A stretch of DNA of 64,000 nt from an uncultured Candidatus Rokubacteria bacterium (GTDB taxonomy: Bacteria; Methylomirabilota; Methylomirabilia; Rokubacteriales; CSP1-6), in NCBI GenBank assembly GCA_963789955.1, contig CAWBMV010000030.1, positions 1 through 64,000 of the forward strand, in the 5' to 3' direction. Made by a program: the position numbers. Below are positions 21,001 to 27,000 of this stretch, one piece after another (the stretch's first letter is position 1; each line of letters starts with the position of its first letter).

Positions 21001-24000
21001 TCCCGCGCGGGCGTTCGGGCTCTACCCGCGCAAGGGCACGATCGCCGTCGGCGGCGACGCGGATCTCGTCGTGCTCGATCCGGCTCGCGAGCACACCGTC
21101 TCGCCCGAGGTGCTCCACTCGGCGCAAGACTTCACGCCGTTCGCGGGCATGCGTGTCCGCGGCTGGCCCACGCACACGCTCTTACGAGGACGCACGGTGT
21201 TTCGGGACGGCTCGGTTCTCGGCGAGCCGCAAGGGCAGTACGTCAAGCGTCCGATCGGGCTCTACGGTGCGGCGAGCTGAAGCGGTGCGGGGTGTCCGCG
21301 AGGAATGCGAGTGAGCCGGCGCGCTACGCCTTGGCCTTGGCGGCGGAGCGCCGCGGGCAGGCCTTGTGATACCAGGTCGAGCCGAGCTTGACGTGATTGC
21401 CGTTCTTTCGGATCTTCAGCTTGCACTTGGGACACGTTCCCATCTGCGCTCCTTTTTGAGTGCTGATCGAAGCGGCGCCATTATAGCAGGCGCCTCGGGC
21501 CGGACCTCGTGACGGACTGCGTCTTCTGTCGCATCGTCGCGCGCCAGAGCCAGGCCGACATCGAGTACGAGGACGACGCGGTCCTGGCATTCAAGGACAT
21601 CTACCCGAAGGCGCCGATTCATCTGCTCATCGTTCCCAAGCGCCACGTCAGCTCGATTATGGCGATGGAGCCCGCGGACGTCGAGGTCGTCGGCCGGTGC
21701 TTTCTGGCGGCCCGCAAGATCGGCGAGGCCAGGGGACTGGCCGAGAGGGGATATCGGCTGCGCGTGAACTGCGGCCCCGAGGGCGGACAGGTCGTCTATC
21801 ACGTGCACGTCCACTTCCAGGCCGGCGGGCGGGTAAGCGGCGCCTAGTCGAGGCGCTGATCAAGCGGAAGTGGCCGCAGTCTTCGCTTCGAGCGGCAACC
21901 CGGCGTCCGCCCAGCTGCTGAGCCCGCCCTTGAGAATTCGCACGTCGCGATAGCCCAGGTCGCGAAGCTGGCGCGCCACCCGGGCGCTCGTGGCTTCGTC
22001 GGGTCAGGAGCAGTAGGCAACGACGGTGCGATTCACGTCGAAGTCGAGGGCGCGTGCGCCCGCCTTGAGCTCTTCGGGCGCGACATGGCGGGCGTCCTGA
22101 ATCCTCACCGGGCTCTTGGTGTACGTTGGTCCGTCGCGAACATCCAGAATGACCGGCGGCGTTTCCGGTGACGCCTCGATGAGCCGCATCACCTCGGCCG
22201 GCCGGATGCGATAGCGGTTGCGCTTCGCGCGCCGCGCGAGGAACACACCGACCGCCGCGAGGATCACCACCGCCACGACCGCGGCGATCGGCGCCCACGG
22301 GAAGGGGCGAGGAGGCGGGTTCTTCGCTTCGGCCATCATGCGGCGCACGTCGGTCAAGTCGGGGAGGAGGCGGTTCGCTTCCTCGAAGTGCTTCTCGGCG
22401 CGGCCGTAGCTGCCGGAGAAAAACTCTTCGAGCCCTGCGTGCCACGCGGCGTTGAATCGACTGGCTTCGTCGAGCTTGACGCCGCTGCCCTTCAGGAACT
22501 CGCGCACCGCTGCCGACGGGATGATGAAGTTGAACCCCTGGACGATGGCACCCTGGCTCCCGGTGTCGAGGCTCACAAACGTCAGGACGCCGAGAACCCC
22601 GCCGTCCGAGCCGACGGCGGGGCCACCGCTGTTGCCCCACGCCGCCGGCGCGTCGACCTGGATCACCGGCTGATTGGCGACGTCTTGCTTGAAGCCGGAG
22701 ATCGCGCCGTTGGTCACCGAGGCCTCGACCTTGGCGGATGCGTTCAGGAGCTCGTGACTCAGCACCACGCCCGGGAAGCCCAGGATGTGAATCTTGTCGC
22801 CGATCTTCGCATTCGAGGAGTCCCCGAGAGACAGAGCCGGCATGTCGGCGGCTTCGAGCTTCAGGAGCGCGAGGTCGCGGCCCGACATCGCCTCGCCGGC
22901 GACCGGCGGGCTGTACTTGGACACCGTCGCGCCGAGCCGCATGCCGTTCGCGAGAAGCACCGAGATCGATGGATCGAGCTTGATCTTGGCCCGCGCCACC
23001 GCCGCCGCGAAGTCCCGATCGCTCACGTCGGGGCACGCCTGACGGACGCCTCGCTGCAGCAGCTCCTGCGCGATCTCCTCCTTGGGCTGGTGTGCCGGCG
23101 AGACGACGTGGCCGTTCGTGACGAGCCACCCGTTCGGATTGATGAACCACCCCGTCCCAGTTTCGCGGAAGGGTGCGGGTGACACCTGCTGCTTGCCGCC
23201 GGCCGGGCAGGTCACGGTCACTTCGGCGGCAACCTCCGAGACGACGAGCGCCACCGCTGGCTTGGCACGGAGCAAGACCTCCTGGACGGAGGGGGCGGCA
23301 TCGGCGAGACCAGGAACCGCGAGGAACAGCAGGCTCGCGACCCACGTGCGCATTCTCGAAATTCTATACCTCGCGAAACACAAACCTCGCGAAACACAAA
23401 AAAGAAGGCTCCAGGGGGGCGGCCCCTGGAGCCTGGGTGCTGCTACCGCAAAGTGCTGCTTACTTCATCAGGCCCATCGCCTCGACGGCCTTCGACTTGG
23501 CGGTGTCCATGTTCCCGGCCTTGCAGGCCGCCTCGGCCTCGCGGACCAGCTTCGTCGCGTCGCTACCCGACGAAGACTTGGCACCGGCGAGCGACCGCGG
23601 AGCCTGAACGTCCTGACCAGCTCGCGGAGCCTGGATGTCCTGACCCGCACGCGGGGCCTGAATGTCCTGACCAGCCCGCGGAGCCTGGATGTCCTGACCC
23701 GCACGCGGGGCCTGAATGTCCTGACCAGCCCGCGGAGCCTGGATGTCCTGACCCGCACGCGGGGCCTGAATGTCCTGACCAGCTCGCGGAGCCTGGATGT
23801 CCTGACCCGCACGCGGGGCCTGAATGTCCTGACCAGCTCGCGGAGCCTGGATGTCCTGACCCGCACGCGGGGCCTGGATGTCCTGACCTGCGCGCGGCGC
23901 CTGAATGTCCTGACCAGCGCGCGGAGCCTGGATGTCCTGACGCGAACCGGCTAGCGACCGGGGCGCCTGAATGTCCTGACCACGCGGAGCCTGGATGTCC

Positions 24001-27000
24001 TGACCCGTCCGCGGGGCCTGAATGTCCTGACCGGCACGCGGGGCCTGGATGTCTTGACCCGCCCGCGGGGCCTGGATGTCCTGGCCGGCGCGCGGAGCCT
24101 GGATGTCCTGACGCGAGCCCGCGAGCGACCGGGGCGCCTGGATGTCCTGCCAGCTACGCGGGGCCTGGACGTCTTGACCACGCGCGGCGCCTGGATGTCC
24201 TGGCGCGAGCCGGCGAGCGACCGCGGCGCCTGAACGTCCTGCGCGCTTCGAAACCTTCTTCAGCATGGCTTGCGCCTGGCTGACTTCGACCGGGCACTTG
24301 GTCTGCGCGTCGGCGACAGGCGCCAACGTCGCGACGACTGCGGCACTCATGATCACTGCGAAAAATCTCTTCATCGGTCTTTCCATTTCCCTTCGTTCTG
24401 GTTTGGTTTGGTTCGATCCGTTCACCGCGCCAACCTGCTTCGCGCTCACCCCCTCGGCGTCGAGGTCGACTCGGTCGCTACAACTCTTGGATGGAGATTA
24501 AGAGCAACGAGGATGCCAGCGGCGAATCAGGCTAAGGACGAATGAAACAAGCTACTTATTCGGAATTCTCACCCCCGGCAGATGGCGTTGTGCCCGGCGC
24601 CCGGCTCGACAGGGGTGCGGCATTCTGCCCGTCGACCGCCTTGTGATAGCCTGACACCCGCGATGCATTGGATCCCGCGTATTTCGCTGGTCTTTCGGGC
24701 TCAGCGCTCTAGGTCTCATGGCCTGCTCGACAGCGACGAAGGTGAAGTCCTCGGCGGCGCCCCAGGTGCCTACCCGATACGTGCTCCACAACGGTGTGCG
24801 GGTCCTCGTTCAAGAGTACCCCTCGAGTGAAGTCGTTGCCGTCCAGCTATGGGTGCGCGCGGGCGGACGCGACGAAGCCCCGACGGAGCTCGGCCTGGCT
24901 CATTATCTCGAGCACATGCTGTTCAAGGGGACCACGACTCGCTCGAAGGGCTTCGTCGACCGGGACGTCGAGGCGGTCGGCGGGCGGATGAACGCCGGAA
25001 CCTCGCTCGACTTCACCTTCTATCACGCGGTGCTGCCGGCCTCGCGCGCGGTCCCGACCATCGAGATGCTCGCCGACATCAGCGTCAACTCGATCCTCGA
25101 CGAGACCGAGCTGGAGCTCGAGAAAAAGGTCGTCATCGAGGAAATGCGGGTGAGCGAGGACACACCGCAGCGGCATCTCTCGCGTCAGCTCTACAGCATG
25201 GTGTTCGACGGCCACCCGTACGGCCGCTCCGTGCTCGGCACGCCCGAGATCATCCAGAAACTGACGCGGCAGACCCTGCTCGCGTTCTATCGCCGTCACT
25301 ACGTTCCCGAGTCCTTCACCCTGGTCGTCGTGGGGCCGGTGAATCCCGCCGAGATCCTCCAGGCCGCGGAGCGGACGCTCGGGCGCCTGCCGCGAAGCGG
25401 CTTCCAGCGACTACCGCAATCGATGCCCGGCTCGCTCGCGCCGAAGAAGACCGAGATCCCGCGGCCCGGGGCGCTGGCCTATCTCGGGATGGGGTGGCTC
25501 GGTCCGAAGCTGGATCATGCCGACACGCCGGCCGTCGACCTCCTCGTGTCGATGCTCGGTGAATCGCGCTCGTCGCGCTTGCCTCAGGCGCTCCGTGACC
25601 GGCTCGGGCTCGTCAATTCGGTGAGCTCCAACTACCAGGCGCTCGAGGCCGGAGGCGTGATCACGGTGACGGCGCAGCTCGAGGCCGAGAATCTCGCCCG
25701 CGCCGAGGCCGAGATCCTGAACGAGATCCGTCGCCTGCGCGACCGGGATGTGAGCGACGAGGAGCTGCGTCGAGCCCTCACGCGCGCCGAGGCCGAGCGC
25801 GCGTTCCGCAGCGAGACCGCCGAGGGGCGCGCCCAGCTGTTCGGCCACGCGGAGACCGTGTGGCGGCTCAGTGAAGAGCTCGCGTACATCGATCGCCTGC
25901 GATCGGTCACGCCGGATCAGATTCGTTATGCCGCTCGACGCTATCTGGATCTCGAGAGCTACGGACGGGTCGAATTCGTTCCCCCGCCACGATGACGCGC
26001 GTCGTCCTGATGCTCGGCTCCCGTGCTGATGGCGTGCGCGCTCGCGCTCGGCGTCTCGCACGCCGAGGACCAGCCCGTCGCGCGCCAGGTTCTCGCGAAC
26101 GGATTGACGGTGCTGGTTCGCGAAAATCCAGCGGTTGGTGTCGTCGCCGTCTCGCTTCAGGTCCGCGCAGGCTCGCGGTTCGAGACCGAATCGAAGGCCG
26201 GCATCACCAACTTCCTGCACCGCGCGATGGTCCGCGGCACGGCGCGCCGCACCGCGATCCAGCTCGCGATCAGCGCCGAAGACATCGGCGGCAGTATCGA
26301 CGCGAACGGCGAGATCGAGGCCGCCGAGATACGCGGTCAGGCGCTGGCGCGCCACTGGGAGACGCTTCTGGATCTCGTGGCCGACGTGGCGCTTCAGCCG
26401 GCGCTCCGGCCCGACGAGATCGAGAAGGAGCGCCGGCTCATTCTCGGTCAGATCAAGTCGCGCGCGGATGCGCCCTTCCTGTTCAGCTTCGACGCCGTGC
26501 TTCGCGAGCTGTACGGAACGAATCCGTACGGGCGCAACCAGCTCGGCCTCAAGGACAGCGTCGAGCGGCTGACTCGCGACGATCTGCTCGCGCACTATCG
26601 CGCGATCTATCAGCCCGACCAGATGGTCCTGGCCGTCAGCGGTCAAGTGGAGCGCAAGGCTGTCTTCAAGGCGGCCGAGCGACTCTTCGGCCGTATGACG
26701 CGCTCCGGCGCCAGGGACTCAGGCGGCGCTCCCAGTTTCCGAGCCGCCGGGGGAGCGCAAGGTCATCACGCGCCCGGCCCAGCAAGCGCAGATACTGGTC
26801 GGCTATCTCGGGCCGGGCCTCGCGGATCCTCTCTACCCGGCCGCTCGCGTGCTCTCGGCCGCGCTCGGCGGGGGCATGGCGGGCCGTCTGTTCGTCGAGC
26901 TCAGAGACCGCCGCGGGCTCGCGTACTCGACGGCCGCCTTCATGCCGTATCGCACCGGACCGACGTTCCTCGATCGCGTTCCTCGGGACGGCGCCGGCCA

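Follow-up and report, generated by a model that had tools for sequence, protein, structure and literature searches.

A sigma-54-linked repeat protein of uncultured Rokubacteria that may present a short periplasmic motif in many copies

The window analysed here, 64,000 nucleotides of DNA from an uncultured Rokubacteria bacterium, contains a repeat gene, P0001, whose product we read, tentatively and at slightly less than even chances, as a sigma-54-induced periplasmic protein that presents a putative binding motif many times in the manner of ZraP or CpxP. In this proposal, a dedicated enhancer-binding activator would act at two sites with IHF bending the DNA, the message would stop at a terminator, and the Sec pathway would export the product. 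Its two ends would then form a small disulfide-clamped three-helix bundle (modelled, with the disulfide predicted), from which projects a charge-neutral, disordered loop carrying (D/E)(I/V)Q(A/S)PR 6-45 times. The working unit would be this motif rather than the bulk of the loop, most likely as a short linear binding motif for an envelope protein, and the partner would probably be a membrane sensor kinase, contacted on its outer face; by analogy, the protein would be an accessory factor of high valency, exerting feedback on its own inducing system or buffering it. The neighbouring protease would have joined the locus early while being separately transcribed and dispensable. The repeat family is characteristic of a single family of abundant uncultured soil bacteria, being present in 148 of its 158 genomes and in almost none outside it. 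Literature listings on the motif, Rokubacteria (also with sigma-54, repeat proteins or transcriptomes), 7TM kinases, Asr and peptide signals contained no account of it, and Pfam, NCBIfam and the ESM Atlas returned no family for the repeat protein, its bundle, the bundle-less peptide or the kinase sensor domain described below. The 555 homolog clusters counted in the first-pass annotation were reproduced, as was the finding that, of the 120 listed, three have a stray Pfam domain and not one bears a functional name; the labels NB, Peptidase_M23 and Gp5_trimer_C are below cut-off or artefacts of the repeats. Among the matches listed, long ones found in searching the representatives (P0251, P0292 and others like them) were set aside because they look like unrelated low-complexity repeats. 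A DNA pattern scan of genome contigs for three QAPR units (at least 80 loci, eight inspected) gave mostly single matches in unrelated taxa and was too loose to define the family's range.

Features of the repeat locus, in window coordinates
Feature	Position	Strand	Basis or remark
HIT-family gene	21509..21847	+	Left flank; ancestral operon that received the cassette
S1C-like serine protease P0002	22004..23353	-	Signal/anchor, Trypsin_2, weak TPR, membrane segment, weak rhodanese; no PDZ
-10-like hexamer	23361..23366	-	7 nt before protease start; conserved
Intrinsic terminator	23396..23434	-	12-bp stem and T-run (23434-23406), between repeat gene and protease
Repeat gene P0001, 304 aa	23460..24374	-	Signal peptide, Cys helix, motif array, Cys helical hairpin, in that order
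C-terminal two-helix hairpin	23463..23561	-	Invariant A-E-x-x-C-x-x-G; packing on N-terminal helix modelled
Array of 23 QD(I/V)QAPR motifs	23595..24241	-	21 in frame, 2 out; TRF and alignment with relatives
Out-of-frame stretch	24180..24245	-	Between compensating +1/-1 indels; none in 5/5 aligned relatives
N-terminal helix	24246..24296	-	Invariant C-P-x-E at its start; homolog alignment, AF2 model
Sec-type signal peptide, 23 aa	24306..24374	-	End A-D-A; read from sequence; homologs similar in shape
Sigma-54 (-24/-12) promoter	24503..24518	-	Conserved across loci
IHF-like AT-rich site	24545..24558	-	46/63 loci vs 3/63 for a control stretch
Proximal enhancer (activator) site	24583..24595	-	Conservation across loci
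Distal enhancer, palindrome GGCA-N3-TGCC	24618..24630	-	35 bp from proximal site
Divergent M16 peptidase pair and rhomboid	24664..28009	+	Right flank, ancestral operon; second M16 gene frameshifted

The earlier description of P0001 as a secreted 304-aa protein with Cys-bearing helices stands: the reading frame begins with a signal-peptide-like segment, consistent with Sec export, and encodes two Cys. Both Cys motifs are present in 117/120 homologs, more than one His in only 6/120, and the bundle has two invariant Glu. The helix and loop model was also recovered, with AF2 again giving, for homolog P0004, one N-terminal and two C-terminal helices (pLDDT 83-88) and a loop with pLDDT below 50; a disulfide between the two Cys ends is predicted on this model. 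A fold search with the bundle returned DUF4398 (Z 7.5), LanD (Z 6.6) and SmbP (Z 5.7), but such values are generic for helical bundles. The LTXXQ, Spy and ZraP profiles of Pfam and NCBIfam gave no match for P0001, and P0344 matched Spy at E 0.49 in the signal region only. The tandem repeat was reproduced by TRF (period 27, 18.8 copies). Of the 21 tandem AGQDIQAPR copies first annotated, only 14 are exact, while 21 holds as the number of in-frame QD(I/V)QAPR motifs. Two further motifs, at 24241 and 24202, are hidden out of frame by a +1/-1 indel pair (~24245 and ~24180) that is missing from all five aligned relatives, and therefore the true count is probably 23 and the out-of-frame stretch probably reflects assembly errors. 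The two reported paralogs likewise exist and are each interrupted by single-base indels; the C10 paralog has eight motifs and the C1 paralog five, but the latter does not share the bundle, its intact relatives consisting of a signal peptide and five motifs with no Cys bundle. Several paralogs lie among CBS-, BON-, USP- and FBPase-like stress-island genes (by eye; FBPase confirmed).

Apart from I/V, every change among the in-frame cores of the window's array is synonymous, and the motif profile over 1324 motifs is sharp, which together argue for selection on the motif sequence. The conserved unit, new here, is the short motif (D/E)(I/V)Q(A/S)PR, between whose copies the spacers vary freely, although some lineages show core drift (e.g. 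DVNAPR, EDQASR). Three architectures carry it: the bundle, the bundle-less form and, in one instance, a fusion to a peptidoglycan-binding domain. The long Pro/Gln-rich repeat flanked by terminal Cys helices resembles glutenin, and one could imagine, with the peptidoglycan-binding fusion in mind, Cys ends that pair between chains by domain swapping into an elastic periplasmic mesh. We consider such a structural polymer very improbable: bundle-less forms have no Cys, bundles with a single motif exist (P0138), and two Cys allow chains but no network. A more serious competitor, though itself somewhat unlikely, is that the protein is a general stress protein acting in bulk, namely a disordered and abundant hydrophilin of the Asr/LEA kind that shields membranes or proteins of the envelope during drying or acidification of the soil, its repeat sequence being kept for composition alone. 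Hydrophilins combine high hydrophilicity, more than 6% Gly and disorder, and the loop of P0001 has all of these (GRAVY -1.04, net charge +2, Gly 10%, one Trp as its sole aromatic residue, predicted disorder); copy number ranges from 6 to 45 across the family, and the stress-island-like setting of several paralogs and, as a weak hint, deep RNA contigs over the 3′ end of the gene fit as well. Such a role does not readily explain why the order of the core is exact while the spacers are free to vary, or why peptides with as few as one or two motifs are retained next to a kinase, where so few copies make action in bulk unlikely.

These bundle-less peptides are predicted to be exported and carry 1-12 motifs, and because the same core with free spacers persists in 64 of them, we favour the binding-motif reading. 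The peptide gene is divergent from genes for a 7-helix kinase and a sigma-54 activator in 28/29 genomes and in 61/61 metagenome loci with enough flank, although these loci are close kin and not independent cases, and the locus has its own enhancer palindromes (30/30 loci). In its sensor part the kinase folds like a GPCR and lacks a separate periplasmic domain. Given this occurrence beside a membrane sensor, the motif may be a signal; a place downstream of a two-component system is nevertheless that of an output and does not necessarily imply a ligand. Nor is the GPCR-fold kinase a universal target of the motif, since it occurs in 55/158 family genomes against 148/158 for the repeat family, and among remoter kinases of this type only 4/20 loci have the peptide. 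The first-pass idea of identical short peptides lives on, in altered form, in these kinase-linked peptides. One version of it holds that an Arg-specific protease encoded elsewhere cuts a polyprotein after each Pro-Arg and that the GPCR-fold kinase senses the peptides, closing a sigma-54 feedback loop in which the window's gene represents the form with many copies. Pro-Arg followed by a small residue is a trypsin/thrombin-type site, and the residue after Pro-Arg is mostly small in the motif profile (G 55%, S 31%); 44/64 bundle-less peptides end in Pro-Arg-Gly, and the kinase linkage is tight. We nonetheless regard this precursor as rather improbable: no Arg-specific protease was identified, although no search aimed at one was made, the last motif retains a residue after Arg, a feature just as compatible with an intact binding motif, roughly two thirds of family genomes lack the kinase, and a peptidoglycan-tethered form exists. 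A broader conjecture, unlikely but worth stating, is that diderm Rokubacteria use signalling akin to that of eukaryotic pheromones, with exported (D/E)(I/V)QAPR precursors, a GPCR-fold histidine kinase and sigma-54 feedback, the disulfide-clamped 23-copy protein being a high-valency reservoir or decoy of that signal.

The regulatory sites upstream of P0001 are defined by conservation, from which their activity is predicted. The sigma-54 promoter is found in 63/66 loci, compared with 74/1320 shuffles and 1/66 reverse strands, and the AT-rich site upstream of it is IHF-like. At least one enhancer site is present in 61/63 loci and two in 50/63, and the combined enhancer and promoter pattern occurs in 58/159 genomes, against none for a control pattern. 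When the main enhancer matrix was run over the window's own genome, this promoter scored 37.7 and the next best 19.9, the runners-up being putative sites for an NHL-like protein, a patatin, an FAD oxidase and a secreted protein; a single-target enhancer suggests a specific circuit rather than the broad stress regulon that a bulk hydrophilin would lead one to expect. No kinase adjoins the main locus, its enhancer sequence differs from that of the bundle-less locus, and a regulon search of the same genome, which has about 30 activators, left none assignable to it. Downstream, an intrinsic terminator separates the repeat gene from the protease in 64/82 loci (4/410 shuffles), and a -10 hexamer before the protease start is kept in 41/52 (3/52 on the reverse strand, 62/2600 shuffles), giving the protease a promoter of its own, which is probably leaderless. 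RNA contigs from three studies end at this terminator (4/24 listed runs, contigs only, compared outside the array), and the lack of RNA cover at 23328-23405 in these runs is a weak hint rather than proof of termination; from the deep contigs over its 3′ end, also a weak hint, transcription of the repeat gene in soil is probably strong. Near the locus, neither a tRNA nor an Rfam RNA was found. With a terminator between the genes and a promoter for each, we abandon the co-transcribed operon first proposed and infer that the repeat gene is a stand-alone sigma-54-induced unit.

As originally reported, the protease gene does lie directly downstream of the repeat gene and co-directional with it; this holds for 52/75 resolvable main-locus copies, the gene being missing there in 23. 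This neighbour is found on either side of the root of the family tree, with at least five changes on the tree, and the description of an undescribed, widespread Rokubacteria family with an old protease neighbour can be upheld. The same cannot be said of a dedicated partnership, because protease homologs also occur away from the repeat gene in 10/20 loci (one of which, L561, is the same locus). The pairing is old, probably ancestral, but dispensable and separately transcribed. The enzyme has a Trypsin_2 domain (PF13365, 78.9 bits) with a His-Asp-Ser triad and GNSGG active site, and its best solved relatives are HTRA1, to which the alignment was made, DegP and DegS. Its identification as HtrA was not borne out: no PDZ domain matched at E 0.1, and it scores 62.8 and 54.9 bits against cut-offs of 416 (TIGR02037) and 470 (NF047968). 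Position 189 in trypsin numbering, counted back from the catalytic Ser, is non-acidic in 32/33 orthologue active sites examined (Pro in P0002), and therefore the proposed cutting after Pro-Arg is unlikely. P0001 might still be a substrate, decoy or inhibitor of this protease or its paralog, as CpxP is with DegP; the adjacency just described, a near-equal family range (150/158 genomes and 0/21 in the sister family, via a second paralog) and the position of the protease paralog after a repeat-less His-type C-P bundle protein in 6/30 loci speak for it. Yet the latter protein, which may be distantly related to the repeat protein, shows weak homology (hhalign 30%; six forward matches vs one reversed of 386), none of the inspected paralog loci has a protease beside the repeat gene, and with separate transcription, each gene found without the other and no Arg-type pocket we judge this role quite improbable. 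The M16 peptidase genes reported on the other side are present but were rejected as functional partners, being ancestral synteny, since HIT adjoins M16 with no repeat gene between them in 5/5 sister-family genomes.

Although the host is uncultured, the full conserved promoter (enhancer pair, IHF-like site and sigma-54 box) could be tested in E. coli, and so could the two-gene kinase/activator module with its cognate peptide of 18-50 residues. Should the GPCR-fold kinase recognise the motif as its ligand, the two would form a peptide-receptor pair of a type that our literature searches on these bacteria did not turn up; if the protein is no more than a hydrophilin for stress, the family is new but modest.

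Several known systems offer partial parallels. E. coli Asr and the LEA-type hydrophilins are exported or hydrophilic, disordered and repeat-rich, and the repeat protein, probably abundant, resembles them in these respects but is charge-neutral rather than basic, with a strict motif order, a disulfide-type clamp and no family match. DUF4398, LanD and SmbP have a similar three-helix arrangement, whereas His is rare in the repeat family. Yeast alpha-factor, AgrD/AgrC and ComC/ComD pair peptide precursors with polytopic membrane receptors, and the bundle-less form shares with them a signal peptide, a repeated short peptide, an adjoining polytopic receptor and possibly a feedback promoter; here, however, the output is sigma-54-dependent, processing and binding are putative, and the host is diderm (PMC5712423). 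From the HtrA/DegP (S1C) proteases, with which it shares the Trypsin_2 domain and GNSGG active site, P0002 departs in having a TPR-like segment, a second membrane segment and a C-terminal rhodanese-like domain instead of PDZ. CpxP (PMC6737893) is strongly induced, is encoded divergently from its two-component operon, acts as an inhibitor of the sensor and is broken down by an HtrA protease. The likeness is that of a periplasmic accessory protein, whereas sigma-54 control, the repeat architecture, the lack of sequence likeness and a dispensable, PDZ-less protease neighbour set the repeat family apart. In layout there is a parallel with zraP of E. coli, whose RpoN-bound promoter is divergent from the zraSR kinase/activator genes (PMC8743547): the C1-type bundle-less locus shares the small exported protein and divergent arrangement, and the window's gene shares the sigma-54 promoter and enhancer sites. 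Yet the window's gene has no kinase beside it and no Pfam or NCBIfam ZraP/Spy match above cut-off, ZraS has a periplasmic domain where the kinase here has a 7-helix membrane sensor, and ZraP is a folded metal-binding chaperone while the repeat family offers a disordered motif array.

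The repeat gene encodes a protein of 304 amino acids in which a signal-peptide-like start is followed by C-P-x-E, the repeat array and A-E-x-x-C-x-x-G. Where the first-pass annotation counted 21 tandem copies of AGQDIQAPR, there are indeed 21 QD(I/V)QAPR motifs in frame, but only 14 units match AGQDIQAPR exactly and two further motifs lie in another frame. None of five aligned relatives has the +1/-1 indel pair seen near 24245 and 24180, and nearby genes are frameshifted as well; the true protein therefore probably carries 23 motifs. Codon changes inside the in-frame cores are all synonymous except for I/V, and the protein is therefore under selection. 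Both Cys motifs are kept in 117 of 120 homologs, and the two Cys ends may be joined by a disulfide once the protein is, as its start suggests, exported. An AF2 model of the homolog P0004 has three confident helices and a loop with pLDDT <50. Such an array could act as a bulk stress hydrophilin, which we regard as rather unlikely, or as an elastomer, which is very improbable.

The motif number ranges from 6 to 45 per locus (median 18, n=63 loci). A profile of 1324 motifs, anchored on Pro-Arg/Lys, reads Q87, D70/E14, V75/I13, Q94, A84/S15, P, R99, then G55/S31, and the motif is the conserved unit; its Arg is a site after which trypsin cleaves. It occurs in three architectures: with the Cys-bearing helical bundle, without it, and fused to a peptidoglycan-binding domain. 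The paralog on contig C1 does bear the motif, as first annotated, but this copy and its intact relatives consist of a signal peptide and motifs with no Cys bundle. Spacers vary freely among the bundle-less peptides, and 44 of 64 distinct ones end in Pro-Arg-Gly; that the motifs are units of a processed pheromone precursor is nevertheless unlikely. Bundle paralogs are also found in numerous other settings, usually with a sigma-54 box; the protease stood alongside in none of the paralog loci inspected. Several near-identical bundle paralogs lie in separate places in two genomes (G148, G160). By eye, the repeat has drifted to (S/T)K(D/E)DQASR or DLTGSQAPR in some lineages (L534, L536, L537), where M16 and the promoter are separated by a GGDEF-like gene.

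A 38-sequence profile matched 148 of 158 genomes of the family and, elsewhere in the phylum, gave two weak matches among 92 genomes; this tally, like those for the protease family, the kinase and the His-rich bundle protein, includes as many as four genomes that are labelled unpublished (G044, G076, G216, G217), and no conclusion depends on these alone. Record titles of related loci mostly name Rokubacteria or Methylomirabilota, and the few other labels are probably mistaken, since gene order there is identical. No description of the family was found in the accessible portions of the literature surveyed, and the words 'repeat' and 'hypothetical' are absent from the accessible main text of PMC5103831. 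The claim of an undescribed, widespread family thus stands: it is real and lineage-wide in Rokubacteria.

Features of the repeat locus and of related loci (G000, the genome under study; other G, C and L numbers, further genomes, contigs and loci; positions without a prefix lie in the window, G000:C30:1-64000)
Feature	Location	Remarks
Look-alikes of LigD, Ku, secreted DUF4142-type and CHRD-type genes	13336-17887	names presumed from translations
Short-chain dehydrogenase	18732-19583	frameshifted; fits indel-prone assembly
Rhodanese-like domain of protease P0002	22004-22190	ends right after Cys-Ser; many orthologues end at the same Cys-Ser, others extend 28-61 residues
Direct repeat	23368-23400	perfect, 16 nt, 2.1 copies; between terminator and protease -10 box
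Terminator	23434-23406	12-bp hairpin and T-run; between repeat gene and protease
Repeat gene P0001	23460-24374 (-)
Second M16 peptidase	26023-27302	frameshifted; fits indel-prone assembly
secA	31428-33755	frameshifted; fits indel-prone assembly
Kinase locus (L015)	G000:C1:351357-354860	sigma-54 activator, 7-helix GPCR-fold histidine kinase, divergent bundle-less peptide; three GTTYC-N5-SRAAC palindromes
C10-type bundle paralog (L016; also L080, L100, L355)	G000:C10:27713-28295	sigma-54 box, no terminator; runs directly into class V FBPase gene; nearby genes resemble BON, CBS, OsmC stress genes
PG_binding_1 fusion P0392	G110:C131 (L139:1270-1971)	signal peptide, about 7 motifs; seen in one genome
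Repeat gene in two pieces (L351)	G166:C33:66000-70200	separated by insertion-sequence-like stretch
Second protease, same family	G000:C20:127221-129100	frameshifted; longer C-terminus, by eye like complete rhodanese and cyclic-nucleotide-binding domain
Secreted repeat-less C-P helical bundle	L558:2103-2405; G000:C36:67175-67465	His-rich; SmbP-like by eye
Weaker GGCA-N3-TGCC-like sites	G000:C12:460149-460290; C34:561303; C22:349740	at other candidate sigma-54 promoters; genes after them: patatin-like gene, secreted protein, NHL-like protein

The proposed co-transcription with the protease is contradicted by signals that separate the two genes. Of the 82 loci with sufficient DNA downstream, 64 passed a strict terminator test (4 of 410 shuffles did so), and 16 of the 18 failing loci have, by eye, a hairpin with a weaker tail. 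Upstream of the repeat gene, a sigma-54 box was found at 63 of 66 loci with sufficient upstream DNA (74/1320 shuffles, 1/66 reverse strands). Above it lie paired GGCA-N3-TGCC sites, mostly 35 bp apart, with at least one in 61 and two in 50 of the 63 loci from which the consensus was itself derived, and an IHF-like site is present in 46/63 loci vs 3/63 for a control stretch. In an external check across 159 genomes, the pattern of site plus promoter matched 61 times, in 58 of them, and a control pattern not at all; ten matches were inspected, eight being the repeat locus and two other genes. The protease is preceded by its own -10-like hexamer (41/52 loci; 3/52 reverse strands, 62/2600 shuffles). 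RNA contigs, which stem from relatives (4 of 24 runs examined), add a weak hint in favour of separate transcription: in three runs from three studies none covers 23328-23405, whereas a DNA contig spans 22830-23612, and depth is 179-1037 over the 3' end of the repeat gene vs 0-12 over the protease. On these conserved signals, the repeat gene is predicted to be a transcription unit of its own, and it may well be strongly induced.

The protease itself (P0002) had been labelled HtrA-like and credited with cutting after each Pro-Arg. A domain search returned Trypsin_2, weak TPR, a membrane segment and weak rhodanese but no PDZ domain, and P0002 falls far below every HtrA cut-off, so the label does not hold. 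Position 189 (trypsin numbering, counted back from the catalytic Ser) is Pro, and 32 of the 33 orthologue sites inspected lack an acidic residue there, which makes cleavage after Arg unlikely. The 87 foreign loci comprise five that lie elsewhere and have no protease, and 82 copies of the main locus, of which 75 could be resolved and seven are left out. What comes next in these 75 is the protease in 52, HIT itself in 11, a convergent transporter of phosphonate type in 11 and a different feature in one. The M16 gene on the other side was confirmed as a neighbour but reflects ancestral synteny: in five of five sister-family genomes HIT and the M16 pair are immediate neighbours, from which we infer that an older operon received the cassette by insertion. 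A quick M16 tree, built from 55 of 85 rows after omission of 30 that had no long M16 match, places the protease on each side of the root of the family and requires at least five changes, which argues for early pairing and repeated loss. Conversely, 10 of 20 protease homolog loci lack an upstream repeat gene (among them L561, the same locus), nine have one and one is too short.

That the repeat protein is a partner of this protease draws on adjacency in 52 of 75 loci and on a nearly identical range: counted via its second paralog, the protease family is found in 150 of 158 family and none of 21 sister-family genomes, the C20 protease probably accounting for most single matches. At 6 of 30 loci, moreover, a protease paralog comes after a C-P bundle protein of the His type that has no repeats, although the kinship of this bundle to that of the repeat protein is weak; 105 of the 251 genomes of the phylum have a match to the His-rich bundle. 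Against this, 23 of 75 loci lack the protease, the signals are separate and each gene also occurs alone. The partner story is mostly wrong, and we hold it to be quite improbable.

The short form is linked to a kinase, whose membrane domain matched in 59 of 251 genomes, and among the best 30 loci inspected a divergent sigma-54 promoter was present at all 29 with sufficient flank, a motif-bearing exported peptide being encoded at 28 (25 by pattern, one false match dropped, and three by reading). Some of these peptides have one or two motifs. An enhancer palindrome, GTTYC-N5-SRAAC, is found at 30/30 loci and differs from the main-locus sites. Among 80 metagenome kinase loci, close kin, the peptide was present in 61 of 61 with sufficient flank; among more distant loci it was present in 4 of 20. 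In at least 12 of 29 loci (L368-L397) a small conserved ORF whose product begins M-x-W-(L/M)-D lies downstream of the peptide gene; L395 has this ORF and no peptide. The sensor domain matched neither a Pfam nor an NCBIfam family. Its model has seven helices (pLDDT 83), and nearly all of its 50 best structural matches are 7-helix proteins of the GPCR type (about 200 of 210 residues), though their Z of 11.3-13.7 may reflect a common helical arrangement and the best Foldseek E was 0.013.

We therefore favour, tentatively and at slightly less than even chances, the reading in which the repeat protein serves a sensing circuit as a multivalent accessory factor, placing it ahead of the hydrophilin, pheromone, protease-partner and elastomer readings in that order. 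Its motif would be bound by an envelope protein. The accessory-factor reading has its main gap here: the GPCR-fold kinase occurs in far fewer genomes than the repeat family (55 vs 148 of 158 family genomes), and the main locus, in a genome with roughly 30 sigma-54 activators, would be served by another one than the kinase-linked locus. The motif and its kinase link are the part worth testing. Rokubacteria are described as diderms (PMC5712423), and the proposed logic would resemble that of ZraP and CpxP: zraP is divergent from zraSR with an RpoN-bound spacer (PMC8743547), and the gene for CpxP, a CpxA inhibitor degraded by DegP, is divergent from cpxRA (PMC6737893). By profile the repeat protein falls outside both families, although the layout belongs to a known type.
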